A program made the position numbers and the translations under genes. The notes under the pieces are model-generated. The model searched no databases and was not told the DNA's origin. It worked only from the letters and a program-made list of their open reading frames with translations. From the IMG/VR virus record IMGVR_UViG_2974621456_000001, positions 4,870 through 68,869 of that record: a stretch of DNA of 64,000 nt. One strand, written 5' to 3'. Positions 24,281-42,949 of the stretch are shown one piece after another (the first letter of the stretch is position 1; every line of letters begins with the position of its first letter). This stretch comes from a virus (lineage: Duplodnaviria; Caudoviricetes).

Positions 24281-24912
24281 AGACCACCCCGGTTCGCCAG
24301 GGGGGTTAGCCGGAAAGCCCACCGTCGGGAGACAGGGGATGTCGCTACCGGTAGGGCACTCGCAGCACACCAGCGCTGAACGAGGTTCCGGTTTGAAACC
24401 CGGCACCGTGAGACCAAAGCCTGAATCAAGGGAGAGAAAACCCGCAAGTTCTGTCGCAAAAGTGTTGAACCACAACGGTTCTCCGGCGATTCGTCACTGA
24501 TGAACTAAACGAATTGAGCTTGCTTATATAGGCCAGAACGAAATCCAAAGAGTAACAAGGGAATTCAACTAGCGATAACGGATCGTCGGGAGACGTACCG
24601 GAGTCATCCAACCGGATGCCCGCTAAAGCCAGACATGGTGTGACTGACTGAACCTTGGGATGGTATGGAAGACGGACGAAGGCTGAAATACGTTGTGGCA
24701 GTTAAGGTTTAATGCCCTAAGAGATAGAATCCCCCAAAAGCTCAAGCGCGATGGAATGGCGCTATCCGCTCCAAACCCTCTGTGGCACAACGTTTTCCAT
24801 CCATCCTCGGTGCAACTTCGGTTGCACCTTTAAGGTATCCAATTGAAAGCTTGGGTGCCTCAATGGTGCAATTTGAAAGTGGTTGTGTCACAACCTGATC
24901 CCCACACTTTCA
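24281..24912 (+). ncRNA. large structured non-coding leader / ncRNA candidate
   Basis: Two UUCG tetraloop hairpins, two GTC-GGGA-GAC GNRA hairpins, a 16-bp long-range helix, and stems whose imperfect pairs are G-U on the + strand; no credible CDS. Confidence 0.6.
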
Positions 24913-25184: not shown

Positions 25185-25231
25185 AAGTCCTTGACTCCCA
25201 AGGGCTTAACAATAAAACAAAGGATGGAATC

Positions 25232-25465
25232 ATGGAGATTACCTCAAATCGGAAGGCCATTGCGGAAGCTGCCGAAAAAGCAGGATTCCAAAGGGTTTTC
25301 ACTCCCCACTTTGATGTTTATCGCAAGGGAGACAACGAGATTGAGATTTTCTACTTCTCTACCGGCAGGCTCAAGGGAACATTTATTGAGTACATGCAAA
25401 AAGAGAAGATCACCAAGGTTGGCCCGATTCTAGATTACTTCCGAATCATGGCCAATCAGAGCTGA
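25232..25465 (+). CDS. accessory hypothetical protein
   Basis: AGGATGGAA leader; 77 aa. Confidence 0.75.
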   Translation: MEITSNRKAIAEAAEKAGFQRVFTPHFDVYRKGDNEIEIFYFSTGRLKGTFIEYMQKEKITKVGPILDYFRIMANQS

Positions 25466-25472
25466 ATCGAAC

Positions 25473-25508
25473 TTGGCCACTCTCGAAAGAGAGTGTGCCA
25501 CTGGTCAA
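25473..25508 (+). other. non-T-loop structured spacer (GAAA tetraloop)
   Basis: CACTCTC-GAAA-GAGAGTG inside an outer TTGGCC/GGTCAA helix; followed by the A/C tract and AGGATGGAA. Confidence 0.65.
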
Positions 25509-25544
25509 TTCAGACCGACCCAAAACAATACAAAGGATGGAATC

Positions 25545-25814
25545 ATGGCTACGATCACGGGAAAGCTGCACTGCTGCGACGATTGCGCGATGGCAATTGC
25601 CAACGGTGACACTTCTGGCCTTGACTACCACGGTGACGAATACCGTGCCAAGTGGGAAGCTGGTGTAGAAGCAAGCAAAGATGAACTGCCGGAAGGCTAT
25701 CCGGTCATTGCTTGCCCCGAAGATTGCGACGGTTCAGACAAGCGAGAGTTCATGTGTGACTATTGCAGCCGCAACGTCTACTCTCACAAGTTTGACCTTG
25801 TATTTCTGAACTAA
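25545..25814 (+). CDS. accessory Cys-rich (Zn-binding) protein
   Basis: AGGATGGAA leader; HCCDDC...CPEDC...CDYC. Confidence 0.75.
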   Translation: MATITGKLHCCDDCAMAIANGDTSGLDYHGDEYRAKWEAGVEASKDELPEGYPVIACPEDCDGSDKREFMCDYCSRNVYSHKFDLVFLN

Positions 25815-25823
25815 TCACCAACA

Positions 25824-25867
25824 GCCGCAACGGTTTACGTATGGGTTCGATTCCCATAGCGGCACGT
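25824..25867 (+). ncRNA. tRNA-like mini-module M2
   Basis: GCCGC-aacggtttacg-TATGGG-ttcgatt-CCCATA-GCGGC-acgt. Confidence 0.8.
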
Positions 25868-25912
25868 CGTACTGACCAAAAAGGTTGGTACAAAACAAAA
25901 TAGGATGGAAAG

Positions 25913-26200
25913 ATGAGCAAGGTACTTTCTCCCGGTGAAGCAATGCGTATCGGTGATTTGCTGAATTCCATTGCGACAAAAGCGAAAATCACCTGGGTTC
26001 GGGAAGATGGCCAAATCTGCAAGGGTGAGCTTCGTTGCTTGATTCAAAGCAAGGACAGTTTCGCTCAATTGCCTTGGGGCACAGACGTTCGTGATGCTTG
26101 GGTGTGGATCACTTCCGGTGATTTTGAATACACAGAAAGCGTTGAACGTCTCGTGAAACTCATGGACGAAGGTGGTTTCGTGACGGATAATCCGCGCTAA
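25913..26200 (+). CDS. accessory hypothetical protein
   Basis: AGGATGGAA leader; 95 aa. Confidence 0.75.
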   Translation: MSKVLSPGEAMRIGDLLNSIATKAKITWVREDGQICKGELRCLIQSKDSFAQLPWGTDVRDAWVWITSGDFEYTESVERLVKLMDEGGFVTDNPR

Positions 26201-26209
26201 TCACCAACA

Positions 26210-26253
26210 GGGACAACGGTTTTCGGGTAGGTTCGATTCCTACCGTCCCACGA
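26210..26253 (+). ncRNA. tRNA-like mini-module M3
   Basis: GGGAC-aacggttttcg-GGTAGG-ttcgatt-CCTACC-GTCCC-acga. Confidence 0.8.
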
Positions 26254-26300
26254 AGTCAACCAATTCGGTTGGCTAACAATGAAATACAAAGGATGGAATC

Positions 26301-26585
26301 ATGGCTGACGTTACCTCTGTGTTCTTTTGCGGCATGGGTTGCGGCAAGGTTGAGGTTGAACACTTCAACGATTGTGAGGGTCGAACCCTTTACGGTCGTG
26401 AATGGAAGTGCAAGTGTGGCAAGACAATTGACACTATCGGCGGCAGAGACGTTGAGTGCGATTGTGGAGCTTGCTACAACGGCTTTGGTCAACGGTTACG
26501 TAGCGGCTGGCGGGGCAACCCTTCAAACTACGATGACGAAATCGGAGACCTTGAAGGCTACGAAATGCAACACGCCAATGGCTAA
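26301..26585 (+). CDS. accessory Cys-rich (Zn-ribbon-like) protein
   Basis: AGGATGGAA leader; CGMGC, CKC and CDCGAC motifs. Confidence 0.75.
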   Translation: MADVTSVFFCGMGCGKVEVEHFNDCEGRTLYGREWKCKCGKTIDTIGGRDVECDCGACYNGFGQRLRSGWRGNPSNYDDEIGDLEGYEMQHANG

Positions 26586-26712
26586 GGTACTCAAGCTAAT
26601 TGAATGCCGTTACTGTCATCGGTTCGGGTTCAACGGGTTTGAGCCTGATCACCTTTTGGGTGGCTATCGATGCAAAGCCCGCAAGGCTTGCCAGAAGCGC
26701 ATAGGCAAGTAA
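26578..26712 (+). CDS. small basic Cys-rich protein (44 aa)
   Basis: ATG at 26578 overlapping the previous gene; CRYC...C...C. Confidence 0.5.
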   Translation: MAKVLKLIECRYCHRFGFNGFEPDHLLGGYRCKARKACQKRIGK

Positions 26713-26720
26713 ACCGAAAA

Positions 26721-26767
26721 GCCCTGAACTTAGCGACAATTCGAGTGCGAGTCTCGACAGGGCACGA
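26721..26767 (+). ncRNA. tRNA-like mini-module M4 (variant loop)
   Basis: GCCCTG-aacttagcgacaat-TCGAG-tgcgagt-CTCGA-CAGGGC-acga. Confidence 0.7.
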
Positions 26768-26811
26768 AAGTTGTTGATCCCCAACAGCTTACAAATTAAA
26801 AGGATGGAATC

Positions 26812-27168
26812 ATGATTCGTAACGATGCACTTCGTGAGTATTCAAACCTGTTGGAAGCCAACGGGTTTGCGATCTACGAATCGAAAGACCCGACATTTGA
26901 CTACTTCGTGTATTCACGAATGGTTGATGGTCGGGAATGCTTCGGGAGTGTTTCGTATGACCGGTTTGAGGGGTTCAACCACTCGATGCCGATCAAGCCA
27001 TCGCGGGAGCATGGTTCGTCCATGTTCATTGAGGGCATACGTCACCTAGAGGCAACGGTAGAGGCAGCAAAGAAGACTGCTAGCCCAACCAACAGCAACA
27101 AAGTTGTTGGGAGACACGAGAACTACCGCGATGAGTATTGGATTGAACGCTTGTACCTAAAGCGTTAA
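26812..27168 (+). CDS. accessory hypothetical protein
   Basis: AGGATGGAA leader; 118 aa. Confidence 0.75.
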   Translation: MIRNDALREYSNLLEANGFAIYESKDPTFDYFVYSRMVDGRECFGSVSYDRFEGFNHSMPIKPSREHGSSMFIEGIRHLEATVEAAKKTASPTNSNKVVGRHENYRDEYWIERLYLKR

Positions 27169-27212
27169 GCCCGAATGGTTTTCGGTCAGGTTCGATTCCT
27201 GACCGGGCACGA
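27169..27212 (+). ncRNA. tRNA-like mini-module M5
   Basis: GCCCG-aatggttttcg-GTCAGG-ttcgatt-CCTGAC-CGGGC-acga. Confidence 0.8.
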
Positions 27213-27256
27213 AACCTGTTGATCCCCAATAGGTTACAAATAAAAAGGATGGAATC

Positions 27257-27556
27257 ATGGCTGAGTATTCATTCCGTATTGAATCCGTTGATACTGAAGT
27301 GGCTTTCGATTGCGAAGCAGACCGGGCAGAACGTGAGGGATTTACCAACGTGGCAAAACGTCAGCGGGACAACGCTTTACATGTTCGCAATGCGGTTCAT
27401 CACATGCAAAAGATTTGCCCCGAAGGTTACCGTGTCGAGACGAAAATCGTTGTGTCACATGTGCCTAACGTCATTCCTGGTCTGAGAGACGACATTCGTA
27501 ACGGCACAAACCCTTGGTCAAAGGTCAATCATGATGCAATAATTCGTGGTGAGTGA
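27257..27556 (+). CDS. accessory hypothetical protein
   Basis: AGGATGGAA leader; 99 aa. Confidence 0.75.
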   Translation: MAEYSFRIESVDTEVAFDCEADRAEREGFTNVAKRQRDNALHVRNAVHHMQKICPEGYRVETKIVVSHVPNVIPGLRDDIRNGTNPWSKVNHDAIIRGE

Positions 27557-27566
27557 ATCATGGTTA

Positions 27567-27610
27567 GGGTGAACGGTTTTCGCTCCGGTTCGATTCCGGG
27601 GCACCCACGA
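27567..27610 (+). ncRNA. tRNA-like mini-module M6
   Basis: GGGTG-aacggttttcg-CTCCGG-ttcgatt-CCGGGG-CACCC-acga (one G-U pair). Confidence 0.8.
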
Positions 27611-27658
27611 GGCTGGACCGAATTCGGTTGGGCCACAACAGAAAAGGATGGAAGAGCG

Positions 27659-27841
27659 ATGGACAAAATTGTGGACCTTTCCACCAGTGAAGCAACCGCA
27701 CTCTTGCGGGAACTGGAACTGGCAAAGGCTCAATATGGCTTGCATAAGCTGGCAGTGTGCATCGATGGACCACATGTGAAATTCAAGGTGAATGAACACA
27801 CGTGGTCTCCCCCAATGGGAACACTCCGAGAATCGGAGTAA
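27659..27841 (+). CDS. accessory hypothetical protein (60 aa)
   Basis: ATG at 27659 after AGGATGGAA. Confidence 0.7.
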   Translation: MDKIVDLSTSEATALLRELELAKAQYGLHKLAVCIDGPHVKFKVNEHTWSPPMGTLRESE

Positions 27842-27849
27842 CCCAAAGA

Positions 27850-27893
27850 GCGCCAACGGTTTTCGTGATGGTTCGATTCCATCAGGCGCACGG
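27850..27893 (+). ncRNA. tRNA-like mini-module M7
   Basis: GCGCC-aacggttttcg-TGATGG-ttcgatt-CCATCA-GGCGC-acgg. Confidence 0.8.
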
Positions 27894-27938
27894 TACGTGA
27901 CGAATTTCGTTGCGTCACAACAGAAAGAGGATGGAACA

Positions 27939-28124
27939 ATGTTCACACTTGAAATCCGCACTACCGGAGACGCTTTCGTTGGTTTCACTGAACAAGAGGT
28001 TGCGAAACTTCTTCACGAAGTGGCCCGCGAGTTGCCACTAAAGGGAGCCTCTAACAACACTCGTTCGATCATTGATGCGAACGGAAACCGTTGTGGCTCT
28101 TGGAAGTTGACCAACGATGAGTAA
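27939..28124 (+). CDS. accessory hypothetical protein (61 aa)
   Basis: ATG at 27939 after AGGATGGAA. Confidence 0.7.
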   Translation: MFTLEIRTTGDAFVGFTEQEVAKLLHEVARELPLKGASNNTRSIIDANGNRCGSWKLTNDE

Positions 28125-28329
28125 CTATGCTGAACGGATCAAGCAAGAGACCGAACGTCTAAAGCCATTGTGGCCGAAAGGTATTCGTGTCTTTTGGGAT
28201 CACTTCGGACACAAGCGTTATGGTTCAACGATGGACGTTGATGGTTGCTTTATCAGGGTCAAGCCTGACGACAACCCCAACGATCCAATTTGGTTGGACT
28301 ACCGAAAACTCGAAAAGGTAAGTGCATGA
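28117..28329 (+). CDS. accessory hypothetical protein
   Basis: Overlaps the previous gene; 70 aa. Confidence 0.65.
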   Translation: MSNYAERIKQETERLKPLWPKGIRVFWDHFGHKRYGSTMDVDGCFIRVKPDDNPNDPIWLDYRKLEKVSA

Positions 28330-28586
28330 GGAACATTCAGCTAGACATGAATCAAGTCAGACAAGTACGCAAAGCGGTTGCGGCAATTGACCGTTGCTTG
28401 CTGGAAGCTCAAAGACCTGGTGCCACAATGGCTCTCAGAGACAGGGCAGTAAAGAAAGCACGTTACACGCTGGTCTGTCTTGAGGATATGGTGGACAACA
28501 TTGGTAGCGGCAAGCCTAATCCGTGGTCTGACTACGAACCAATGATTTCCGAAGAGTTCGACCCACCGGTTCCCGCTACCGGATGA
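28326..28586 (+). CDS. accessory hypothetical protein
   Basis: ATG at 28326, ATGA coupling. Confidence 0.65.
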   Translation: MRNIQLDMNQVRQVRKAVAAIDRCLLEAQRPGATMALRDRAVKKARYTLVCLEDMVDNIGSGKPNPWSDYEPMISEEFDPPVPATG

Positions 28587-28595
28587 AAAGCGGTA

Positions 28596-28641
28596 GCTCA
28601 CAACGGTTTTCGCCAAGGTTCGATTCCTTGGGTGAGCACGT
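28596..28641 (+). ncRNA. tRNA-like mini-module M8
   Basis: GCTCAC-aacggttttcg-CCAAGG-ttcgatt-CCTTGG-GTGAGC-acgt. Confidence 0.8.
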
Positions 28642-28687
28642 ACCCCATTGATCCCCAATGGGACCACAATAGAAAGAGGATGGAAAC

Positions 28688-29119
28688 ATGAGCGCACCAA
28701 TCGTTTTGACGGTTCCCGGTTTCTTCGCACCGTCAAACAAGTATTCGTCTTCTGTCGCAATGGTTTTGGACCAAACCGACGGATACAGCGATGAATACGG
28801 AGACGTTAACGAGTATGGCTCTTACGCAATCTCGTTTTACGGCATAGGGATTGAAGAGGCTTACAATCTTGTGGCTGAATTCATTGCTGACACAGTGCAA
28901 TCCTTCAACCCTGGTGTTTGGTGGTCAGAGGTTCGTCAACTCATCGATATTTTGGGTGAGGGTCGAAACTGGATCATCACAACAGACAGTCAGGGTTTCG
29001 TTGGGGCAGAAGCCTTTACGGACGAAGAAGAAGCACGAAAGGTCTTTGAAGAACGCCAGACTGACTATCACGTTTGGTCAAGTCAACGGGAAATCCCCAA
29101 GATTGGGGATGATCTGTGA
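28688..29119 (+). CDS. accessory hypothetical protein
   Basis: AGGATGGAA leader; 143 aa. Confidence 0.75.
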   Translation: MSAPIVLTVPGFFAPSNKYSSSVAMVLDQTDGYSDEYGDVNEYGSYAISFYGIGIEEAYNLVAEFIADTVQSFNPGVWWSEVRQLIDILGEGRNWIITTDSQGFVGAEAFTDEEEARKVFEERQTDYHVWSSQREIPKIGDDL

Positions 29120-29355
29120 AACCATTGCATGTGGTTATGGTCCTATTCCGTTATGTCGCAAAGACTTACGTTGACAATGACGGTCAAGACACGATTGAGG
29201 TTCAGCTTTACGAAACGGAAGGCAACGTTTTTGTTGTCGGAGAAGATGCCGTTGAGTTTGGCCCTGCCTTAAGTCCTTTGATACCAACCAATTTCGGTTG
29301 TTATCAGATGATGGTCTGGTCTCATGATTGCGAAAAAGTCCACGGCTCAAGCTGA
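29116..29355 (+). CDS. accessory hypothetical protein
   Basis: GTGA coupling; 79 aa. Confidence 0.6.
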   Translation: MKPLHVVMVLFRYVAKTYVDNDGQDTIEVQLYETEGNVFVVGEDAVEFGPALSPLIPTNFGCYQMMVWSHDCEKVHGSS

Positions 29356-29364
29356 TTCGTGGCA

Positions 29365-29409
29365 GTCCCGAAGGGTATAACCGTGGTTCAACTCCACGGC
29401 GGGACACGT
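29365..29409 (+). ncRNA. tRNA-like mini-module M9
   Basis: GTCCCG-aagggtataa-CCGTGG-ttcaact-CCACGG-CGGGAC-acgt. Confidence 0.8.
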
Positions 29410-29447
29410 AGCAACGAAAACCGTTGCAACACTGAAAGGATGGAAAG

Positions 29448-29657
29448 ATGATGGATACCAAACAAAGTACCTACGTCAGAATGTTGACCATAGGCCAAGT
29501 GTTTTGGGACGAAGAGCAACTATGGGAAGTTACACGAGAACCCTTGATAGAGAACGATTCTCGTGTGCTTATCTACATTCGTCCTCATCCACATCAAGAG
29601 GGCGAAAGGTCACGTGCTTTTTACTACGCAAACGATAAGCGCGTGAATCTGGCCTGA
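29448..29657 (+). CDS. accessory hypothetical protein
   Basis: AGGATGGAA leader; 69 aa. Confidence 0.7.
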   Translation: MMDTKQSTYVRMLTIGQVFWDEEQLWEVTREPLIENDSRVLIYIRPHPHQEGERSRAFYYANDKRVNLA

Positions 29658-29691
29658 TCAAATGCCGATAGACACCTTATGTCTGTCGGTA

Positions 29692-29790
29692 GACCGTAAT
29701 GGTTTGTCTCACAGAACAATTGACTCTAGACATGGGTATATACGAAAGCTATTGTGAGACAGTCGAGTTCGATTCTCGATACGGTCACCA
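29692..29790 (+). ncRNA. tRNA-like module M10 with inserted arm and ACCA 3' end
   Basis: GACCGT-aatggtt-[TGTCTCACA 39 nt TGTGAGACA]-GTCGAG-ttcgatt-CTCGAT-ACGGTC-acca. Confidence 0.75.
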
Positions 29791-29854
29791 TAGGTGATCC
29801 CCCACCTAGTGAGAACGAAACACGTTCTCTGGCAACAGAAATGAGGATGGAAAA

Positions 29855-30997
29855 ATGAGTCGAGAAACCCGTGCATGGCTGCAAGAGTTCATCCTGGTAG
29901 GCAACTGCAAGGAACGTCCTATGGCGTGGCATTATGACCGTGAACTACAGAAGTCAATGGGTTTGGCAGACAACCACTTTCAAGACCCGATTCCTTATCA
30001 GGTTGTGGTTGATCGTCTTTTCTCGTGGGAACCGAAATCCGTCCCAAAGGCGAATTTGGTTCCGTGTGCCAAGCGTGACGCGAATTTCTTTGGCCCTCAA
30101 GGTCAACCGTATAAAGTCATGCCTACCGGTGTCTGGCAGGAAAACGATGGCCGATTCACCTATGAAGGTGAACAGGGCATTATCCGGTCAGATACCAAGG
30201 CGCACATGGCAACTCATGGATCGGGTTACAAGATTCATGACTACAAAAAGTGGCTCTTGCAGCTACAGTCAAACATCTTGGGTGATTCCCTTACGATCCT
30301 TGGAGCTGGCTTGCTACGCAACGCTTTACAGGCTTACGTGCAAGTGGCTATGCCTACCCCTGAAACTGATGATCTGACCGGATTGAAGTTCGTGCCGTAC
30401 ATCACTGCATCAACTTCGCTAGATGGTTCTCTCCCAACAACTTTCAGTTCTGGCTCTCTCTTGGTTGTTTGTGACAACACGAGAGAGATGGCACTACGTC
30501 AGTCTGAAAGGGCAGGGACCATTTACAAGGCAAAGCACACATCAAAGTCTTTGGAACAGAACAGGATCAAAGACGTTCGTGAAGCTCTTGGAATCGTTCA
30601 TCAGCAAGCCGAAGGGTTTGTTGCTGAAATGCAAGAGCTGGCAAGCATTCCCGTTACCCGCCGGAATTGGGTAAAGGTTCTGGATATCATCTTGCCCTTG
30701 CCTGACCCAACTGACCCGAAGACCAGCAAGCGTGGCATCACAATTGCTGAAAACAAAAGGGAGGTAATGAATCACACGTACTGGAAAGACCCGATGATGA
30801 ACAACATGCAAGGCACTGCCCTAGGTGTGGTTCAAGCGGTCAACACGTACGCGACCCATTACGCGCAAATCAAGGGAAATCGCTTGGAGCGCAACATGGA
30901 AAAGATGGTTAAGGGTGACTTTGGAGACATTGACCGTCGTACAGTCTTGGCTCTGTCAGAAGTCCTGAACCGTCCAGAGTTGGTCTCTGCCAAGTAA
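29855..30997 (+). CDS. DUF932/DUF945-like phage/plasmid protein
   Basis: S.DGS...VVCDNT motif and C-terminal GT..GVVQAVN.Y..H pattern; 380 aa. Confidence 0.7.
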   Translation: MSRETRAWLQEFILVGNCKERPMAWHYDRELQKSMGLADNHFQDPIPYQVVVDRLFSWEPKSVPKANLVPCAKRDANFFGPQGQPYKVMPTGVWQENDGRFTYEGEQGIIRSDTKAHMATHGSGYKIHDYKKWLLQLQSNILGDSLTILGAGLLRNALQAYVQVAMPTPETDDLTGLKFVPYITASTSLDGSLPTTFSSGSLLVVCDNTREMALRQSERAGTIYKAKHTSKSLEQNRIKDVREALGIVHQQAEGFVAEMQELASIPVTRRNWVKVLDIILPLPDPTDPKTSKRGITIAENKREVMNHTYWKDPMMNNMQGTALGVVQAVNTYATHYAQIKGNRLERNMEKMVKGDFGDIDRRTVLALSEVLNRPELVSAK

Positions 30998-31023
30998 TTT
31001 CGAGACAAGAAAGAGAGAAAGCT

Positions 31024-31164
31024 ATGCGTCCTGGTACGTTTCACGCTCCCGGTTTGGGAGAGCCTTTGACCGGCGAAACGAAGAGAATTCTTCGTAGCTG
31101 GAAGAAGAAAGCAGAGTCAAACCGGAAGTGGTACGAAGCTTCAAAAACCAAGAGCGACAAGTAG
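31024..31164 (+). CDS. small basic hypothetical protein (46 aa)
   Basis: Hand-translated MRPGTFHAPGLGEPLTGETKRILRSWKKKAESNRKWYEASKTKSDK; purine-rich upstream tract. Confidence 0.45.
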   Translation: MRPGTFHAPGLGEPLTGETKRILRSWKKKAESNRKWYEASKTKSDK

Positions 31165-31175
31165 TTTCAGAGGTA

Positions 31176-31224
31176 GGGTAGTCACTGGTGTGATTTGTCG
31201 GGTTCGATCCCCGACTACCCACGA
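31176..31224 (+). ncRNA. tRNA-like mini-module M11 (linker may form a small D-arm-like hairpin)
   Basis: GGGTA-gtcac tggt gtgat tt-GTCGGG-ttcgatc-CCCGAC-TACCC-acga. Confidence 0.75.
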
Positions 31225-31263
31225 AGGGCAAAACCATTGCCCTACAACAGAAATGAGGATGGA

Positions 31264-31647
31264 ATGACCAAGACCAAGGTGAAAGAGTGCTTCATTGCCT
31301 TTGTCATCACCATGTCAATTGTGTTCAGCCTCTTTGCAATTGGCAAAATGGCAACAGCCAAGGCCGATTACAACATGGGTTGTGAACGGATAGGTTGGGG
31401 TTTTCTCATGAGCGGTTACAGAACGATCTGCGATGGTCCGAAACGTCCTGATGGAAGTTGGGACAGAACCCGCCGTGAATGGACACCAGCCGGTTGGGTA
31501 AGTGGTTGGTGCTCTCGCTACTCATGCACGGCGGGTTACTACCGTCAGGAATCGACACAGAGGCTAGAAACCTATCCGGTCAATGATGGCAACGTGCTTC
31601 CGAATGAACCCGGTTGGTTGCCACCAGGCACCGTGCTGATTCACTGA
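31264..31647 (+). CDS. secreted CDGP-motif protein
   Basis: N-terminal hydrophobic signal; ICDGPKRPDGSWDRTR motif. Confidence 0.65.
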   Translation: MTKTKVKECFIAFVITMSIVFSLFAIGKMATAKADYNMGCERIGWGFLMSGYRTICDGPKRPDGSWDRTRREWTPAGWVSGWCSRYSCTAGYYRQESTQRLETYPVNDGNVLPNEPGWLPPGTVLIH

Positions 31648-31669
31648 AAGATGAAGGGACAGAGCACAA

Positions 31670-31852
31670 ATGAGGTCTTGCAGTGAGCATGGGGATAACA
31701 GCAACGTCTGTGATTGTTTCCCCAAACCCGCTACAGTTCATAGCCTTTCAGATGTTTATTTTGAAATGGCTTGTGAGCTAGAGAAACAAAGCCGGTTTCA
31801 GTTGGCCAAGCTCTATCTAGCAAGGGCATTGTCCAAGATTCGTTACAGCTGA
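31670..31852 (+). CDS. accessory hypothetical protein
   Basis: 60 aa; CSEH...CDC. Confidence 0.55.
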   Translation: MRSCSEHGDNSNVCDCFPKPATVHSLSDVYFEMACELEKQSRFQLAKLYLARALSKIRYS

Positions 31853-31861
31853 ACCACAACT

Positions 31862-31905
31862 GCCGCAACGGCATACATGCAAGTTCGAGTCTTGCAGCGG
31901 CACGA
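31862..31905 (+). ncRNA. tRNA-like mini-module M12
   Basis: GCCGC-aacggcataca-TGCAAG-ttcgagt-CTTGCA-GCGGC-acga. Confidence 0.8.
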
Positions 31906-31945
31906 AAATCGTTGATCCCCAACGGTTTACAGAAAGGATGGAAAA

Positions 31946-32473
31946 ATGAAGTTTGTTGACCTTTCCACTGGTGAACCCAAAGAGGTTGAGGTCTTTAATC
32001 TTCGGGAGGTTGTGGGCAAAATGTCCGTTGGCCCGGTTCAATACAGCCGTGTTCGGACATTGACTGAATGGATCAAAGAACCCGAAATCTCAACCCCTAC
32101 ACCAGCATTCACCTTCCAAGAGATTGACTACTGGAAGCCTGAACAGGTGAAAGATTGGGATGCACTGTGGGAGAAGCAAATTGAGCTTGAGGCCGAACGG
32201 CAATGGTTGAAACTCAAGTGTGAGACGTTCTCAAAGGCTTATCTGATTGATGAGCTTTTGGATCAAGCCAGAGACCTTGAGAGCCGAAATTCACGGTGCT
32301 ACAACAAGAATCGGGGTAACTCGATGAGTGACGGTCGTCGTCGCGTTGTGGCATTTGAAGGGGTTGAGGCTTTTGTGCGAATGTTGTTGGGGGACACTGG
32401 AATTCCTACCGACAAGAGTCGAGAACTTGCGGAACATATTCGCAAGGCCAAGGCTCATGTAAACATGCAATGA
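31946..32473 (+). CDS. accessory hypothetical protein
   Basis: AGGATGGAA leader; 175 aa. Confidence 0.75.
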   Translation: MKFVDLSTGEPKEVEVFNLREVVGKMSVGPVQYSRVRTLTEWIKEPEISTPTPAFTFQEIDYWKPEQVKDWDALWEKQIELEAERQWLKLKCETFSKAYLIDELLDQARDLESRNSRCYNKNRGNSMSDGRRRVVAFEGVEAFVRMLLGDTGIPTDKSRELAEHIRKAKAHVNMQ

Positions 32474-32481
32474 GCATGGGA

Positions 32482-32526
32482 GACCAGAGTGGTTGTAAGA
32501 CGGTTCGATTCCGTCTCTGGTCACGT
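32482..32526 (+). ncRNA. tRNA-like mini-module M13
   Basis: GACCAG-agtggttgta-AGACGG-ttcgatt-CCGTCT-CTGGTC-acgt. Confidence 0.8.
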
Positions 32527-32564
32527 GATCTGTTGATTACCAACGGATTTGAAAGGATGGAAAA

Positions 32565-32738
32565 ATGAATACACCAACACTCATCGAACCCGACACCTAC
32601 AAGGCCAGGGAGGAAATCTCCAAAATGGCCGAAGAGCAAGGGTTTTCGTCGTTCCACATTCACGGTACGCATGTGATCGGATACCACGATTACAACGATT
32701 GTGGTGGACACGAAATCTGCCGGTGGTGGTCCTCATGA
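32565..32738 (+). CDS. accessory hypothetical protein (57 aa, not in ORF track)
   Basis: ATG at 32565 after AGGATGGAA; MNTPTLIEPDTYKAREE...; TGA overlaps the next ATG. Confidence 0.7.
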   Translation: MNTPTLIEPDTYKAREEISKMAEEQGFSSFHIHGTHVIGYHDYNDCGGHEICRWWSS

Positions 32739-32956
32739 AGACATTTCTTGTCGTTCTGATGGCAATGGCCTTGTCTATCTTGGGGATTCACAACGCATAC
32801 GCTGAACCAAGTTCCCCATGTGGTTACACCAGTAACCTCCCTTGGTCACCGTGTGCTGAAATCTCCCCATTCCAAACGTATCCCGGTTACTACGACCCGC
32901 AAGGGAAGACACCAGGGGCAATGGGTCCGTGGGGTTACGTTCCGAAGGTAGGTTGA
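32735..32956 (+). CDS. small secreted protein
   Basis: MKTFLVVLMAMALSILGIHNAYA-E signal peptide; two Cys. Confidence 0.65.
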   Translation: MKTFLVVLMAMALSILGIHNAYAEPSSPCGYTSNLPWSPCAEISPFQTYPGYYDPQGKTPGAMGPWGYVPKVG

Positions 32957-32957
32957 A

Positions 32958-33104
32958 ATGATCCGAAATGAATGCCCCTGCAAGGGTTTTGGCAATTGGG
33001 AGTCTGATTGCCCCATTCATGGTGTCAATGGCCGGATTTGGCCTAGCGAATCGTATCTGAATCAGATACGGGGAGAAGTCAAGTCAGCAATGAACGGACA
33101 CTGA
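32958..33104 (+). CDS. small hypothetical protein (48 aa)
   Basis: Hand-translated MIRNECPCKGFGNWESDCPIHG...; fills the gap before module M14. Confidence 0.5.
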   Translation: MIRNECPCKGFGNWESDCPIHGVNGRIWPSESYLNQIRGEVKSAMNGH

Positions 33105-33114
33105 CACCACAACA

Positions 33115-33183
33115 GCCCACGTTGGGACTAGTGCAATATGGGGATCTTGCACTACGGAAGTTCGATTCTTCCGGTGGGCACTG
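33115..33183 (+). ncRNA. tRNA-like module M14 with inserted 8-bp arm
   Basis: GCCCAC-gttgggac-[TAGTGCAA tatggggatc TTGCACTA]-CGGAAG-ttcgatt-CTTCCG-GTGGGC-actg. Confidence 0.8.
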
Positions 33184-33225
33184 GAACCGTTGAATACCAA
33201 CGGTTTTGAGTAGAAGAGGATGGAA

Positions 33226-33450
33226 ATGGCACCAACCACACAACAACTCAACAACACTCGTTTTGCCGATGCTGTTCGTGATGGGGTTGAGCACATGCTG
33301 AACTTCTTTGCCACAGAAGACCTTTCGGAGCTATCAAGGGCTGAAAGCATTCTGATGACTGCAAGAGTTCAGACTCAAACCAATCAGGAACGATTGTATG
33401 TGCAACGGTTGATCACCTTGAACACACGGACAGGGATGGTTAAGCGATGA
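33226..33450 (+). CDS. accessory hypothetical protein
   Basis: ATG at 33226 after AGGATGGAA. Confidence 0.7.
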   Translation: MAPTTQQLNNTRFADAVRDGVEHMLNFFATEDLSELSRAESILMTARVQTQTNQERLYVQRLITLNTRTGMVKR

Positions 33451-33662
33451 GCGTACAAATCCGAAATGCCTTGCTAGTTGAGGCAATTCACGATAGGTCA
33501 GGCGAAGTTGTTGGGAAGGCTGTTCGTGGCACAACTGAAAGCACTTGGTACATAGGCCGAATCATCAAAGGCAAGATGACCCAAGTTGCAACAGTTGAGC
33601 CACACTTACCAGAAGTGATGCAGCGCAAGATAATTCTTGCCATCATGAAGGAGATAGGATGA
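33447..33662 (+). CDS. accessory hypothetical protein
   Basis: ATGA coupling; 71 aa. Confidence 0.65.
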   Translation: MSVQIRNALLVEAIHDRSGEVVGKAVRGTTESTWYIGRIIKGKMTQVATVEPHLPEVMQRKIILAIMKEIG

Positions 33663-34000
33663 GTGCGAGAAAAGTTCGTAACTTGTTGTTGCTCTTGCTC
33701 TTTGGTGGAATGATTGCCGCAACAGTGGCTTTCAGTCCAAAAGCAAGCGCTGACCCTGATGAGTTTTGGGCATCGTATGCCATTGACTATGGCAAAACTG
33801 TTGTATGCCAACAGTTTTCATCTGACGGAATAAATCAAGAGACATTCAATCACCTTGGTCGATTCCTGATGTACGGGGAGGGATATTCACCAGAAGAGGC
33901 AGGGAAGATCACCATACTGTCAGCACAAATGTACTGCCCTGAATATATCCCTCGAATCACATTGGTAGCCAAGCAATTTGGTAAGACCACCAGGGCATGA
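33659..34000 (+). CDS. secreted DUF732-like protein
   Basis: Signal peptide ending ASA-DP; C...YCP cysteine pair typical of the family. Confidence 0.6.
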   Translation: MSARKVRNLLLLLLFGGMIAATVAFSPKASADPDEFWASYAIDYGKTVVCQQFSSDGINQETFNHLGRFLMYGEGYSPEEAGKITILSAQMYCPEYIPRITLVAKQFGKTTRA

Positions 34001-34007
34001 TCGAAAG

Positions 34008-34059
34008 GCCAGACTCCGTGAAGGCGGGGCATCGAGATTCAAGCTCTCGACTGGCACGA
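34008..34059 (+). ncRNA. tRNA-like mini-module M15 (hairpin in linker)
   Basis: GCCAG-a[CTCCG tgaagg CGGGG]ca-TCGAGA-ttcaagc-TCTCGA-CTGGC-acga. Confidence 0.75.
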
Positions 34060-34100
34060 GACCTATTGAAAGACATAGGTTTTCAGAAAGGATGGAACAA

Positions 34101-37444: not shown

Positions 37445-39287
37445 GACCGCAAAGCTACGGCGGGTCAGCAAGACAGAGCTTGAACTTACAGCGCCAAACG
37501 GCAAAACGAAGCTATACCCGTTCAGCTATGAAAATGCCTTAGCTGCAAGGGAATTGGCTAAAGGCAAGGGCTGGAAGGTTTCAGTAGAACCGAAGCTCAA
37601 AGAGTGGATCAAAAACGAGATAGCCAAACGTGATTGGCCACTTGAAATGATCCCACATGATTCAAATCTCGGAAAAGCGTTGGCAGGCAGATCATTTCAG
37701 CGTGAAGGTGTTGAGTTTTGCGTAGAGCATCGAAGTGTTCTCATTGCTGACGAACCTGGTCTAGGTAAGACCTTGCAGTCAATGAGCGCAGTGATTGAAA
37801 GTGGTTGCACTGGAACGATTTTGGTGGTTGCACCAAAGACCGCTGCATACGTTACGTGGCCACACGAATTACAGACTTGGGTGAATGAGGTTGCGCCATA
37901 TGATGAATGGGTCATCATGGGTGGCAAGATGACCAAGCTAGAGCGGATTCGCGCTATGAAGCGAATCATCCAGTGGGACATGGGAAAAGGCCGAATCGGC
38001 CCGCGACAGTGGGTTATCGTGTCTCCCAACTACTTACGTCTCAAAGCCAAATTAGACAAGAATCAAAACTTTGTGTACGACGATGACCGAAGCAAAATCA
38101 TTGTGCCAGTTCGTGAAGCAATGCCAGCATTATTGGCCATTGATTACGCTGCCGTAATCGTTGATGAAGCGCACCAAACCCTTTCTGGCGCAACAGGAAA
38201 CATCAAGAAACAGTCAGCGCAACGCCAGGGTCTTGGTCTACTTGAGGTCAAGGAAAATGGGTTACGAATTGCTGTGTCTGGCACGCCTTTTCGTGGAAAG
38301 CACGAAAACCTTTGGGGCACACTGAATTGGCTATACCCTGACAAATACACTGCCTATTGGTCATGGGTTCAAAAGCACTTCGCTACGTACGTTGACCCAA
38401 TGACGAACGCCACAACAGTTGGTGAGCTTAAGGACGAAACCAAGCTGGCAAAAGAGTTGCAGCACATCATGATTCGTCGCACCAAACAAGAGGTTGCAAA
38501 AGAGCTACCGCGCAAACGCTACGGCGGGACACCACTATTCAAGGGTGGCCCGATTGCCGTATGGCTGGATATGGAAGGTCAACAGAAGAAAGCCTATAAG
38601 GCTATGGTTGATAGCGCTATGGTTGAACTTGAAGGTGGCCGATTGATGGCCAATGGTGTTCTCGCAGAAATGATTCGGCTCAAGCAATTTGCGAACTCTT
38701 ACGGGTTCATGGGTGGGGATGACGAATTTTTCCCGACGTTCCCTAGCAACAAGTTTGATTGGATTATTGATTTCCTTGCTGATCGTGGCATTGATGGCAA
38801 GGGACCGGGAGAGTCGAAAGTCATTATTGCAAGCCAGTTTACTAAGCACATTGACCTCTTCGCCAAACGTCTTACAGAGCAACACAAAATCCCTGTTTTC
38901 ACTTTGACAGGAAAGACCAACGAAGATCAACGAATCATCCTGCAACGTGACTTTCAAAGGGGCACAACAGATTCCGGTGAATTTAGCCCTGACGTGTTTT
39001 TGCTCAACACAAAAGCTGGTGGAGTCTCGTTGACCCTTGATGCTGCCGATGATGTTGTCATCATTGACTCAACTTTCAACCCCGAAGACCAAGAGCAAGT
39101 AGAGGATCGTGCTCACCGGCTTTCACGATTGGACCACAACGTAACTATCTGGAATCTAGCCTCTACCAACAGCATTGACGAATCGATCTTGCGACACACT
39201 TACAAGATGGATACCTCATTGAAGAAAATTCTTGATGGAGAGCGTGGCGTAGACTTTGCCAAGATGCTATTGGCCGATGCTCTGTGA
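37434..39287 (+). CDS. SNF2-family DNA helicase
   Basis: ADEPGLGKT (Walker A), VDEAH (motif II), SGTP, and EDRAHR motif VI. Confidence 0.92.
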   Translation: MATETAKLRRVSKTELELTAPNGKTKLYPFSYENALAARELAKGKGWKVSVEPKLKEWIKNEIAKRDWPLEMIPHDSNLGKALAGRSFQREGVEFCVEHRSVLIADEPGLGKTLQSMSAVIESGCTGTILVVAPKTAAYVTWPHELQTWVNEVAPYDEWVIMGGKMTKLERIRAMKRIIQWDMGKGRIGPRQWVIVSPNYLRLKAKLDKNQNFVYDDDRSKIIVPVREAMPALLAIDYAAVIVDEAHQTLSGATGNIKKQSAQRQGLGLLEVKENGLRIAVSGTPFRGKHENLWGTLNWLYPDKYTAYWSWVQKHFATYVDPMTNATTVGELKDETKLAKELQHIMIRRTKQEVAKELPRKRYGGTPLFKGGPIAVWLDMEGQQKKAYKAMVDSAMVELEGGRLMANGVLAEMIRLKQFANSYGFMGGDDEFFPTFPSNKFDWIIDFLADRGIDGKGPGESKVIIASQFTKHIDLFAKRLTEQHKIPVFTLTGKTNEDQRIILQRDFQRGTTDSGEFSPDVFLLNTKAGGVSLTLDAADDVVIIDSTFNPEDQEQVEDRAHRLSRLDHNVTIWNLASTNSIDESILRHTYKMDTSLKKILDGERGVDFAKMLLADAL

Positions 39288-39613
39288 TTGAAATCGGTTC
39301 TCTTGCAATAGGTTTCAGCGTTGGTTTGATCACATCATCAATCTTGTTGATTGGGGTTCAAAGACGTTTGACCGCAAGGGTTCTCCGTCATGCCAAAATG
39401 GAAGCTACTGCCGATGACCTCGAAAAGCGCAGGTTAGCAACAGATTTCGGGATTGACGAACTGCCCCGCCTTGGTACTGGTCCAATCGCTGACGAAAGCA
39501 ACCTGTTTGAAGTCAGGCCAGGCCGGATGCATCTTGCTCACTTAGCTACAAAAAGAGGAAAAAAGTTGCCGGAATCGGTTGACCAGCAACAGAATCCGAC
39601 TACACTGGACTAG
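39284..39613 (+). CDS. membrane-anchored hypothetical protein
   Basis: N-terminal TM; GTGA overlap. Confidence 0.55.
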   Translation: MIEIGSLAIGFSVGLITSSILLIGVQRRLTARVLRHAKMEATADDLEKRRLATDFGIDELPRLGTGPIADESNLFEVRPGRMHLAHLATKRGKKLPESVDQQQNPTTLD

Positions 39614-39669
39614 GCAGGGGTCGAGAGACCAAGATCGAATAAGTCGAAAGATCAAGGGAGACAAAGCAA

Positions 39670-40122
39670 ATGACCGCAGACGTGGCAGACGCCAAGACCG
39701 ACGAAGGCTCGAAGAAGCGCGGTGGCCAGCGCGGGGAGCGTCCGTGGCGCGACAAGCCCACTGCCCGCGAGCGCGTGATGAATCAGAACCTTGCCGAATA
39801 CGTGAAAGAGGTTACGGGCAAGGATGTTTCGCCTGAGACCATCCGTGCGGTTCGATTCGGTCTGCCCAAGTGGAGCAACGCTGATTCCACAAAGGCACTC
39901 CGTGAGAACATGGACAAGAAGCTCGAAAAGGCCAAGCTGCAAGACAAGCGCGAAAAGGCTTTGGCCATGCTCAAAGAGGCCGAAAGCGAACTGTCCAAGT
40001 ACGATTCGGCCGGAGACCTCGAAGATGAGGACGAAGACGAAGACGACGAAGACGAGTCGTTTGATGAGTCCGATTCGGATGATTCCGATGAGTCTGACGA
40101 CGACGACGTTTTCGGTGACTAA
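39670..40122 (+). CDS. hypothetical protein with basic N-terminus and long D/E tail
   Basis: 150 aa; GGGAG RBS; the last ~35 residues are mostly D/E/S. Confidence 0.75.
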   Translation: MTADVADAKTDEGSKKRGGQRGERPWRDKPTARERVMNQNLAEYVKEVTGKDVSPETIRAVRFGLPKWSNADSTKALRENMDKKLEKAKLQDKREKALAMLKEAESELSKYDSAGDLEDEDEDEDDEDESFDESDSDDSDESDDDDVFGD

Positions 40123-40161
40123 CTGTCCACTTGTGGCCAGTAACAACTAAATAGGGGAAGC

Positions 40162-40330
40162 GCTACCGGGTAGGGATCGATACGGGTTTTCTTCCATCCT
40201 CCCCAAATCTCCCTATCCGGTAGCTCAAAAGGGTTGTGGGACAACTTGATTCCACAAGTCACTGGCGTAATCCGATGTGCTTGCACTACGTAGCCACACT
40301 AGATTGGAACATTTTTCCCACAACCCCTTT
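40162..40330 (+). ncRNA. two-domain structured sRNA candidate with an anti-AGGATGGAA apical loop
   Basis: 15-bp stem 40162-40176/40210-40224 capped by loop TTTTCTTCCATCCTC; second domain closed by an 11-bp stem 40231-40241/40316-40326. Confidence 0.6.
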
Positions 40331-40371
40331 GTGCAGCAACGCTTTCCATTCAGGGTCGATTTTAGAAACAG

Positions 40372-41412
40372 GTGGTTTCTGTGAATGATGTTCCATTGCT
40401 TCGCAATTCGGAACGTGTGGATTTCCGACGTTGCCCGCAACGCTGGCATTGGCGCTGGAACGAACATCTTGTACCAATTGACTTCTCTACTGGCCCTTTG
40501 GTTTTCGGCACGTTTGGTCATCTGGCCCTTGCTGAGTGGTATATCCCTGGCGCGGAACGTGGTCGTCACCCTGCCGAAACTTGGGATGAAATCACCAAAG
40601 ACTACATGGATGCCGTACGTAGTGACATAACGGGATACCTTGACGAAGAGACCGAAATGACGTGGGAAGATGCACGCGCACTTGGTCATTCGCTCTTGGT
40701 TGATTACGTGGAAGAATATGGCAAAGATGAGCAATGGGAAGTCCTTTGGGTGGAACACCCTGGTAATCAACTGATTCCGCATCCACGCAACAAAAACAAG
40801 GCCATCGTTGATTATGCCTTTACCCTTGACTTGATCGTTCGGGATCATGAGCACGGCGGGCGAATCCGCTACATCGATCATAAGTTCATGAAAGTTGTTC
40901 AAACCAACCATCTTTGGATTGATTCGCAAAACGGTGGTTACTTGGCCATTGGTACGCATCAGCTTCGTAAGGCTGGCGTGATTGGCCCGAAAGAGTCTGT
41001 CAGGGATTTGATTTACAACTTTGTTCGCAAGGCCAAACGAGATGAGCGAGAGCGCAACAGGTTTGGTGAGTACCTGAACAAAGATGGCTCTGTGAGCGCA
41101 CGGCAACCAACACCCCGATTTGTTCGGTATCCGGTGACAAAGACTGCCGCTGAACGCAATTCGCAGATTGACCACATTGGCAATGAAGCTCTTCACATGA
41201 AAGCCTTTCGGGATGGCAAGCTTTCGTTGCACAAGAATCCAACACGCGATTGCACTTGGGACTGTTCATTTTTCGCTCTCTGCCAAGTTCACGAATCAGG
41301 TGGAGACGTTGAAGAGACTAAGAAAATGCTCTATCGCAAAGAAGACCCGTACCAGGAATACAAGGATCACAGTAAGTCCATGAAGACCCTTGAAAGGCGA
41401 CTGAACGAATGA
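40372..41412 (+). CDS. Cas4/RecB-like PD-(D/E)XK exonuclease
   Basis: N-terminal RRCP plus C-terminal C..C.....C (1+3 Fe-S Cys layout); D-L...IDHK nuclease motif. Confidence 0.85.
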   Translation: MVSVNDVPLLRNSERVDFRRCPQRWHWRWNEHLVPIDFSTGPLVFGTFGHLALAEWYIPGAERGRHPAETWDEITKDYMDAVRSDITGYLDEETEMTWEDARALGHSLLVDYVEEYGKDEQWEVLWVEHPGNQLIPHPRNKNKAIVDYAFTLDLIVRDHEHGGRIRYIDHKFMKVVQTNHLWIDSQNGGYLAIGTHQLRKAGVIGPKESVRDLIYNFVRKAKRDERERNRFGEYLNKDGSVSARQPTPRFVRYPVTKTAAERNSQIDHIGNEALHMKAFRDGKLSLHKNPTRDCTWDCSFFALCQVHESGGDVEETKKMLYRKEDPYQEYKDHSKSMKTLERRLNE

Positions 41413-42233: not shown

Positions 42234-42259
42234 CAACTCAGCAAGTAAGGAAACTAGCA

Positions 42260-42916
42260 ATGCCAGTAATCAAGCCGAAGTTCGACGGTTCGGAAATGAC
42301 GTCAGGGTTTTACGATGGCCCTCCCCCGTCCCCTGGTCCCTATCGTGGTCGTCTAAAGAAGATGGGACTGGCCAAGATTGGCAGTGGAGACAACAAGGGA
42401 GAAGATCGAATTGCCCTCGTTGTTGAGATCACAAGCGGAAAGTTCAAGGGAGCGGGCATCGTTCACTCTCTGAACCTCATTACCTCTTCCGCTTGGGCAG
42501 TCAATCAGTTTCTTGACGCTCTCACCGACGGTTCGGAAAAGCAGAAGCTTGCTCTGCGAAAGTTGTTCTGGCAGAAGGGTTATGCCGTTGAGGACAACGA
42601 AGATGGAAAGATGGGTCGTCAATTCACGTCCATTGGTGGGAAGTTCAAGCCGATTGGTAAGCCGATCGCTTTCGTTACCAAGATGGATACCTCAACCAAG
42701 ACCGACGAACCGATTGCAGTAATCGATAAGTTCGTGGTTCCCCTTGAGGACTCGAAAGATGATGCAGGGGAAGAGGATTCGCTTGAATCCGTCTCGTCTG
42801 ATTCCGATGACTCCGATGATGATGTTGCGCTTGCTGATGATTCAGCAAGCGATGATGATTCGTCGGAAGCTGTTGCATCGGATGATGACGACGATGACCC
42901 GTGGGGCGACGATTAA
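42260..42916 (+). CDS. single-stranded DNA-binding protein-like (DUF669-type)
   Basis: Follows exonuclease and ATPase; very acidic C-terminal tail ending DPWGDD. Confidence 0.65.
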   Translation: MPVIKPKFDGSEMTSGFYDGPPPSPGPYRGRLKKMGLAKIGSGDNKGEDRIALVVEITSGKFKGAGIVHSLNLITSSAWAVNQFLDALTDGSEKQKLALRKLFWQKGYAVEDNEDGKMGRQFTSIGGKFKPIGKPIAFVTKMDTSTKTDEPIAVIDKFVVPLEDSKDDAGEEDSLESVSSDSDDSDDDVALADDSASDDDSSEAVASDDDDDDPWGDD

Positions 42917-42949
42917 CAACTGAATAGGCCAGGCACGGCCAATTGAATT

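Follow-up and report, generated by a model that had tools for sequence, protein, structure and literature searches.

Does a hairpin that displays, in its loop, the exact complement of a leader shared by a whole array of phage genes act upon that array, or does it serve the genes among which it stands? The question is raised by the phage record IMGVR_UViG_2974621456_000001, of which we analysed a window, i.e. one stretch of 64,000 nt taken as a whole, corresponding to positions 4870-68869 of the 68,869-bp genome (G+C 49%). The hairpin, here named H1, lies in a 249-nt gap (40123-40371) that separates a gene for an acidic protein from an exonuclease gene and also holds a second long hairpin, H2. 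We find that the structure of H1, the strand on which it forms and the complementarity of its loop to the leaders are conserved in every lineage with a readable array. Comparison of these sequences further suggests that the H1 loop probably pairs with the leaders to control the translation of 16 small genes together.

The leaders are defined by a 9-mer, AGGATGGAA, which occurs in 17 copies in the window against 0.77 expected from shuffles (both strands together). Each of the 16 copies on the + strand is located 0-5 nt before an ATG start codon, behind a hairpin and an A-rich tract, and this strand holds the word nowhere else. The sole copy on the - strand is at the H1 loop, which reads UUUUCUUCCAUCCUC and includes the exact reverse complement of the 9-mer, TTCCATCCT. 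Both the count and the exact complementarity had been put forward in an initial annotation of this DNA and were recovered here, together with the details that it gave for individual leaders: leaders that read GAGGATGGAA, five by our count, extend the pairing to 10 nt, the leader at 27645 offers 11 Watson-Crick pairs and one G.U, and the gene at 24929 carries the leader GGAGGATGAA. Overall, the loop is able to pair with all 16 leaders over 9-11 contiguous Watson-Crick pairs, the pairing ending 0-5 nt before the start codon. H1 displays two features of RNAs with anti-Shine-Dalgarno (anti-SD) loops: C/U-rich sequence in an apical loop and complementarity to the ribosome-binding regions of several mRNAs. 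Predicted duplexes between the 15-nt loop and the leaders range in energy from -13.9 to -19.0 kcal/mol, the mean over the whole genome being -5.2 (standard deviation 2.75): the top six predicted duplex sites of the genome are all leaders, and leaders constitute 16 of the 25 best. These energies refer to the 15-nt loop alone, which was used because energies that included the closing GGG/CCC pairs failed to discriminate.

The hairpin itself was reproduced by RNAfold (run on 40150-40240) in the form originally described for it, with a basal stem of 15 bp (40162-40176/40210-40224) containing one G.U, inner GAU/AUC and GGG/CCC pairs, and a 15-nt apical loop that is unpaired in both the minimum free energy (MFE) and the centroid structures. 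The loop remains unpaired when the whole gap (40123-40371) is folded, and this fold has a z score of -3.74, with none of 200 shuffles being equally stable. We identified H1 in nine lineages: the window phage; the Mycobacterium phages Fowlmouth and MrMiyagi, its closest public relatives (79% identity over 39600-41500); Indlulamithi (72%); Send513 of cluster R, whose members are more distant relatives; and five uncultivated lineages found via their exonuclease (G001/L010, G003/L007, L011, L018 and G004/L020). In 9/9 of these, representing at least three phage genera, a long hairpin stands right after the acidic-protein gene, homologues of which precede H1 in all lineages. The stems have diverged yet still pair through compensatory changes, to the extent that the Indlulamithi stem shares no sequence with that of the window. 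While the stems diverge, a CCAUCC core is retained in the loop or interior of H1 in 8/9 lineages, and apical or sub-apical loops are seen in six of the nine. The initial annotation had made its proposal dependent on such conservation, and hairpin and loop core are indeed kept across the nine lineages. A relationship to Patience/Madruga (cluster U), suggested by the G+C of 49%, was rejected, as the database searched includes Patience and it did not match. A BLAST search with the gap alone matched Fowlmouth and MrMiyagi and no others, and a pattern search of genome contigs for H1 gave at least 120 chance matches, none with the H2 motif adjoining.

The strand on which H1 functions is indicated by its non-Watson-Crick pairs. 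A census of 129 pairs in the basal stems yielded 119 Watson-Crick and 10 G.U pairs, with neither A.C nor any other mismatch. All ten G.U pairs form on the + strand only, as the - strand would have ten A.C in their place; some of them are shared by descent, and we count about six independent events. The + strand also folds better than the - strand in 6/6 of the short forms of H1, by 0.4-10.6 kcal/mol, and it is the strand of all the genes neighbouring H1. The resemblance of acaAGGAUG to a CsrA site was considered and dropped, since the G.U asymmetry assigns the hairpin to the strand reading CCAUCC and not to the one with GGA.

Leaders could be read in the seven lineages with an available array (L011 and L018 are outside this set), and in all seven they share GGAUGG. 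When each H1 is set against the leaders of its own phage, the modal match, in contiguous Watson-Crick pairs, is 9 nt in the window phage and in Send513, 8-9 nt in Fowlmouth and G004, 10 nt in Indlulamithi, 8 nt in G001 and 11 nt in G003. Outside the core, the flanks of the loop appear partly to follow those of the leaders: UCU is opposite AGA both in Indlulamithi (loop CCAUCCUCUC, leader GAGAGGAUGG) and in Send513 (loop CCAUCCUCU, leader AGAGGAUGG), and UU is opposite AA in the window phage, G003 and G004 (loop UUCCAUCC, leader GGAUGGAA). A loop co-varying with the leaders of related phages had been among the expectations of the initial annotation; the flanks do track in these five lineages and do not in Fowlmouth and G001, pointing to a co-variation that is partial.

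A further complement of the leader, TTCCATCCATCCTC, is found in the roughly 900-nt non-coding region before the array, where it is directly followed by a hairpin of 8 bp, GGTGCAAC-TTCG-GTTGCACC, with a UUCG loop. This second anti-leader, as UUCCAUCCAUCCUC with the adjoining hairpin, is kept in six lineages, namely the window phage, Fowlmouth, Indlulamithi, G001, G003 and Send513 (window 24795-24828; L004 33160-33200; L005 about 1460-1500; L014; L015; L047 about 4735-4790), and it is the sole block of the non-coding region conserved between the window and Indlulamithi; none was found upstream of the G004 array. The adjoining hairpin has G.U pairs possible only on the + strand in three lineages and only on the - strand in one. 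Rfam models gave no match in the non-coding region upstream of the array, either at gathering scores or at E = 10. Because this element is conserved too, the comparison indicates that selection acts on the leader complement at two sites that are not linked. As to the small-RNA interpretation first offered for H1, its comparative predictions have held up; strict co-variation has not, and the designation "master" antisense RNA is too strong given the second conserved anti-leader. Two Fowlmouth genes, gp37 and gp38, are annotated over the region of the second anti-leader, but their alignment to the window requires frameshifts, and they appear to be spurious.

The best reading of these elements, to which we assign roughly even chances, is a + strand anti-leader RNA that occludes the Shine-Dalgarno (SD) sites of the array genes. 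H1 would be read from the + strand, co-directionally with its neighbours, between the acidic-protein and exonuclease genes, and would either remain within a long transcript or be set free as a stable fragment of about 65-175 nt comprising H1 alone or H1 with H2. Its C/U-rich loop of 12-16 nt would then base-pair with the extended SD leader (A)GGAUGG(AA) of the 12-20 small genes of an array, and the resulting helix of 8-11 bp would cover the AGGA core of the SD and reach almost to the start codon. The 30S subunit would be kept off, the mRNA perhaps exposed to RNases, and the array proteins lowered together; the second anti-leader at 24795-24808 would belong to the same circuit. We infer the accumulation of the RNA, its pairing in vivo, the sign of its effect (repression as against activation) and the timing of H1 action. 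The same reading makes predictions for the two lineages without readable arrays: leaders of GGAGG type, not of the ordinary AGGAUGGAA type, for L011 with its CCUCCUUUU loop, and AAAGGAUGGAA leaders for L018, whose H1 loop is UUUCCAUCCUUU. Such a mechanism appears feasible in the host genus, because the mycobacterial small RNA B11/6C acts in this manner: its C-rich loops pair with ribosome-binding sites and repress translation (bioRxiv 10.1101/2022.10.27.514065, citing Mai et al. 2019).

Several observations weigh against this proposal. One reverse-complement 9-mer in 64 kb is not improbable by chance (about 0.24-0.4 expected per strand), and H1 alone, with z = -1.5 on the + strand, is no more stable than shuffles in RNAfold; because neither the 9-mer count nor the stability of H1 alone is remarkable, the significance of H1 rests on the apical position of the loop and its conservation. 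In Send513 and G003, H1 has a large branched interior and the - strand attains the lower total energy, and in Send513 the anti-leader is not cleanly apical. L011 lacks CCAUCC, its loop reading UUUUUCCUCCUUUUCCC (its source is an 11-kb fragment contig without the array, so that its leaders are unread, and no longer contig was found). The Fowlmouth loop has changed U to C while its twelve leaders keep A, at the cost of one pair, and G001 pairs over 8 nt only, with a loop that does not follow the AGAG flank of its leaders. The universal part of the match is GGAUGG/CCAUCC only, and a purine-rich SD-like sequence facing a C/U-rich loop arises easily. The pairing of one RNA with 16 abundant mRNAs raises a problem of stoichiometry. 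Lastly, a scan for promoters and terminators made no call at H1 or at H2 and found no sigma-A-like promoter and no canonical terminator flanking H1, and only 40 nt lie between the end of H2 and the exonuclease start; on account of both, H1 may be a mere part of a polycistronic mRNA.

The last of these points opens onto the strongest rival explanation, according to which H1 and H2 are cis structures of a polycistronic mRNA (an element for processing or stability, the structured 5' untranslated region of the exonuclease gene, or an attenuator or terminator that follows the acidic-protein gene), the loop is not used in trans, and its sequence is kept for some other reason such as contact with a protein or an RNase. 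A short gap in a co-directional row of genes, too tight to accommodate a promoter of its own for the exonuclease gene, is what it would lead one to expect, and this phage family has many structured intergenic RNA modules. H2 resembles a terminator composed of A-tract, stem and U-tract, and L018 has a terminator-like hairpin with UUUU at the position of the small hairpin H0, which directly follows the acidic-protein gene. H1 is nevertheless not an intrinsic terminator, being followed by UCAAAAGGG in place of a U-tract and attracting no terminator call. More importantly, a role in cis leaves unexplained why the conserved core of the loop should be the complement of the shared leader motif in every lineage, why the flanks should track in Indlulamithi, Send513 and G003, and why a second anti-leader should be conserved. 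We consider this explanation unlikely, if still worth serious attention.

Another alternative takes the loop to be a mimic or decoy, resembling the anti-SD at the 3' end of 16S rRNA and binding a factor or SDs in general, or else to be recognised by a phage protein. All the loops are C/U-rich with CCUCC-like runs, the L011 loop and a hairpin in the distant relative L025 (with CCCACCUCCUCCC) are similar to the canonical anti-SD, and the cuckoo/CcsR RNAs have CCUCCUCCC loops (PMC4615179). The core in eight lineages, however, is CCAUCC and not CCUCC, a better fit to the private leader than to the canonical SD, and the best partners predicted genome-wide are the array leaders, which together make a mimic a decidedly weak candidate.

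One may also ask if the motif is read on double-stranded DNA, as a stoperator-type operator, an origin element or another protein-binding site, with the hairpin being incidental. An asymmetric motif in 17 copies is reminiscent of the cluster A stoperators (PMC3203893), the extended start-associated sequence (ESAS) repeats of cluster K have come to be interpreted as promoters combined with operators (PMC11373665), H1 is part of the replication module, and both H1 and H2 have arms in inverted repeat, to which a protein dimer could bind. Against this, the motif is the only SD-like sequence correctly spaced from 16 start codons, neither iterons nor an AT-rich tract were seen, and the wholly replaced sequence of the Indlulamithi stem retains its pairing. 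The distribution of non-Watson-Crick pairs, 10/10 being G.U on one strand with no A.C, is that expected of RNA, not of duplex DNA, and we regard a DNA site as improbable to a high degree. An explanation by the - strand copy as the true leader of a small gene or as a functionless chance match, although compatible with the chance expectation given above and with the 16-codon open reading frame (ORF) given in the initial annotation, which begins at the motif's own ATG, is scarcely credible: the ORF differs in length and sequence in Fowlmouth and Indlulamithi, no lineage has a start codon at leader distance after the motif, the - strand stem would carry A.C mismatches amid neighbouring genes that are all on the + strand, and conservation of the loop core in 8/9 lineages excludes chance.

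The anti-leader RNA that we favour might extend beyond H1. H2, which begins just 3' of H1, is recovered in both the MFE and the centroid structures of the gap fold. RNAalifold gave it 20 pairs, five of them with compensatory changes, and several of its G.U pairs are possible only on the + strand, one column being G.U in 6/8 sequences; its arms covary in Send513 as well. Because H1 and H2 both covary with G.U pairs confined to the + strand, the comparative evidence indicates that the gap encodes a structured + strand RNA of about 175 nt. The 3' end of H2 is UUUG, but the U residues are engaged in pairs with the 5' A-tract. Between its arms H2 is variable, and its interior is even unrelated between the near-identical Fowlmouth (L001 3622-3745) and MrMiyagi (L002 1622-1760), the latter including a T-arm-like GTGAGTTCGACTCTCAC; the conserved arms of H2 thus seem to enclose a site at which insertions are tolerated. 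When the whole window was scanned with Rfam models at gathering scores, two tRNAs were the only matches, and a scan of the gap up to E = 10 gave only a chance miRNA match, with the 6C and C4 (RF01695) families unmatched. The elements of the gap, its neighbouring genes and the elements of the array are collected in Table 1.

Table 1. Window coordinates of the two anti-leader elements, their proposed targets and the features around them
Feature	Position	Strand	Remarks
Long hairpin H1	40162..40224	+	RNAfold MFE and centroid structures; homologues in 8 other lineages
H1 apical loop UUUUCUUCCAUCCUC, candidate seed	40187..40201	+	15 nt; unpaired in MFE and centroid structures
TTCCATCCT, exact reverse complement of leader 9-mer AGGATGGAA	40192..40200	+	sole - strand match to AGGATGGAA in the window
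Leaders with AGGATGGAA (16), proposed targets	25221..34097	+	exact matches at 25221, 25534, 25902, 26290, 26801, 27246, 27645, 27928, 28677, 29437, 29844, 31256, 31935, 32554, 33217, 34089
Second anti-leader TTCCATCCATCCTC	24795..24808	+	in the non-coding region of about 900 nt before the array
Hairpin GGTGCAAC-TTCG-GTTGCACC	24809..24828	+	directly 3' of the second anti-leader; 8 bp, UUCG loop
Long hairpin H2	40226..40331	+	arms CAAAAGGGTTGTGGGAC (40226-40242) and TCCCACAACCCCTTTG (40316-40331); interior variable
Small hairpin H0	40123..40140	+	directly 3' of the acidic-protein stop codon; in the gap fold
Conserved box ACAACTAAATAG	40143..40154	+	7 nt upstream of H1; kept in 7/8 aligned lineages
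Acidic-protein gene	39670..40122	+	150 aa, acidic C-terminal tail; from the ORF list
Exonuclease gene, PD-(D/E)XK (Cas4/RecB-like)	40372..41412	+	Pfam PDDEXK_1, E = 9e-10

The acidic protein found no family match in a Pfam search, and the gene downstream of the gap is annotated as an exonuclease in the relatives as well. Further out, Pfam identifies a SNF2 helicase upstream of the gap and an AAA_24 (Sak4-like) protein downstream of it. The palindrome of H0 is kept in Fowlmouth, MrMiyagi and Indlulamithi. The conserved box between H0 and H1 was considered as a sigma-A -10 element and rejected: it has no TANNNT match and fits poorly, and no promoter was called; it also shows no enrichment within the window. 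A second copy with one mismatch, ACAACTGAATAG at 42916-42927, lies across the stop codon of a further gene whose product has an acidic C-terminus, and 3' of it (window 42916-42990) is a terminator-like hairpin, GGGCAGTGCCG...CGGCACTGCCC, followed by TTTTC. A search of transcriptomes returned five runs with weak matches, of which the four small ones, all from one 2021 study, were compared over 24500-44499. Each of the four yielded one contig of 100% identity, covering only 39784-40103 inside the acidic-protein gene; these contigs stop near a GAC repeat and are uninformative on the hairpin.

Related arrangements are present in more divergent phages. In Send513, the gap between the acidic-protein and exonuclease genes extends to 1.16 kb and is unannotated (L047 17537-18699, corresponding to 50536-51698); it contains H1, H2 and at least one tRNA-like T-arm, and the exonuclease gene there bears an array-type leader, GAGGATGG. 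The distant relative L025 (1391-1480; 35% exonuclease identity, 58% G+C) shows a AACTGAATAAG box ahead of the exonuclease gene and, after the box, a hairpin of 18 bp with the canonical anti-SD CCCACCUCCUCCC in its loop; the contig is short and its leaders are unread.

The array also has features of its own. Most of its gaps contain a tRNA-like minihelix of acceptor and T-arm type about 55-60 nt before the leader, with the exact T-loop word GGTTCGATTCC occurring in eight copies on the + strand (25161, 25844, 26230, 27189, 27587, 27870, 28617 and 32502). ARAGORN called none of the array minihelices a tRNA, and such modules are also found in Indlulamithi, G001, Send513 and a distant metagenome relative, L023 (L005, L014, L047 and L023). 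In G004, a 71-kb relative (L045 17796-24075, - strand; L046), the array as a whole is in inverted orientation, so that its transcription diverges from that of the replication genes; (A/G)GGAUGGAA is the form of its leaders, and every gap has a terminator-like hairpin with TTGTCCGCTAGGACA. We considered this inversion as a test between RNA-level and DNA-level action and dropped it, because the leaders are always sense to their genes and the orientation of H1 to the exonuclease gene is constant, so that it is not independent.

The role of start-associated motifs extending beyond the SD in mycobacteriophages has been a question since 2011, and H1 offers a concrete, phylogenetically supported candidate for an RNA partner. 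Among the phages that have it are some that can be cultivated on M. smegmatis (Fowlmouth, MrMiyagi, Indlulamithi and Send513), a host in which phage engineering and reporters are routine. Should the proposal be true, actinophages would have in H1 their first defined RNA regulator that is phage-encoded and acts in trans, and one seed would be seen to control an accessory set of 12-20 genes; this knowledge would also help to understand the shut-off of early genes and to build controllable cassettes for mycobacterial expression.

Precedents for such a mechanism come from both phages and bacteria. The c4 antisense RNA of phages P1 and P7 and the CI RNA of P4 (Rfam C4, RF01695) are structured phage RNAs made within an operon, whose exposed loops bind complementary sequence in phage mRNA, at a ribosome-binding site or close to one, and silence expression downstream. 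H1 would be like them in being a phage-encoded structured RNA from an operon with an exposed loop complementary to phage ribosome-binding sites. They differ in that c4 and CI control immunity through one or two sites within the operon that encodes them, whereas H1 has 12-20 dispersed putative targets with one leader in common, and no Rfam match. 6C/B11, found in mycobacteria and other Actinobacteria (Rfam 6C), is likewise a hairpin RNA with C-rich apical loops facing the purine-rich ribosome-binding sites of several mRNAs; it is, however, encoded by the host and targets G-tracts, while H1 is phage-encoded and CCAUCC-based, faces a private repeated leader and is unmatched in Rfam. The cuckoo/CcsR RNAs of Alphaproteobacteria have conserved anti-SD-like loops on freely varying stems (PMC4615179), the same combination as in H1, but are bacterial, consist of 2-4 hairpins in tandem whose loops are CCUCCUCCC and lack a private set of leaders, in contrast to the single H1 hairpin with its CCAUCC core. 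A search of the literature found no description of such a phage anti-leader RNA. H1 is best viewed as a putative phage version of a known type of regulator, one without a published description: it is predicted to work like 6C/B11, RNAIII, cuckoo/CcsR, c4 and CI, but belongs to none of these families.

The closest parallel on the side of the leaders is provided by the start-associated sequences (SAS) of cluster K mycobacteriophages, which are asymmetric, extend beyond the SD, are situated 3-9 nt from the start codons of non-structural genes in one orientation, and often follow inverted repeats (PMC3203893). The leaders of the window phage share with SAS and ESAS the asymmetry, the extension past the SD, the location near starts, the single orientation and the association with non-structural genes; the consensus, GGGATAGGAGCCC as against AGGATGGAA, is different and the phages are unrelated. 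K1 genomes were reported to carry a single reverse-oriented SAS copy away from gene starts, with the binder, RNA or protein, left open (PMC3203893). In the K1 phage Anaya, we find this reverse copy at 59870-59882, in a 385-nt non-coding gap between gp96 and gp97 (L048 39830-39900, corresponding to Anaya 59830-59900). On the strand sense to the genes, this anti-SAS occupies the 10-nt loop of a GCGCGG/CCGCGC hairpin that tops a longer stem, a layout equal to that of H1 in phages of another, unrelated group. The anti-SAS hairpin is kept in Validus and Amelie, with a stem G.U on the sense strand, occurs in variant form in Ekdilam and is missing from Keshu (K3) (L049, L050, L052). Because late transcription in cluster K begins left of the right end, the hairpin could be part of the late leader. 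In papers of 2024-2025 (PMC11373665 among them), SAS are still described as having no known role, and no RNA partner is mentioned. These parallels lead us to a tentative and rather doubtful generalization, namely that at least two unrelated groups of actinobacteriophages (Fowlmouth/Indlulamithi/cluster R and the cluster K phages with SAS) might use a private translation code, in which an extended leader marks the non-structural genes and one or two hairpin RNAs with its complement switch the set. Were it true, the SAS motifs would gain their missing partner, and H1 and the anti-SAS hairpin would represent a widespread, undescribed class of phage regulatory RNA.

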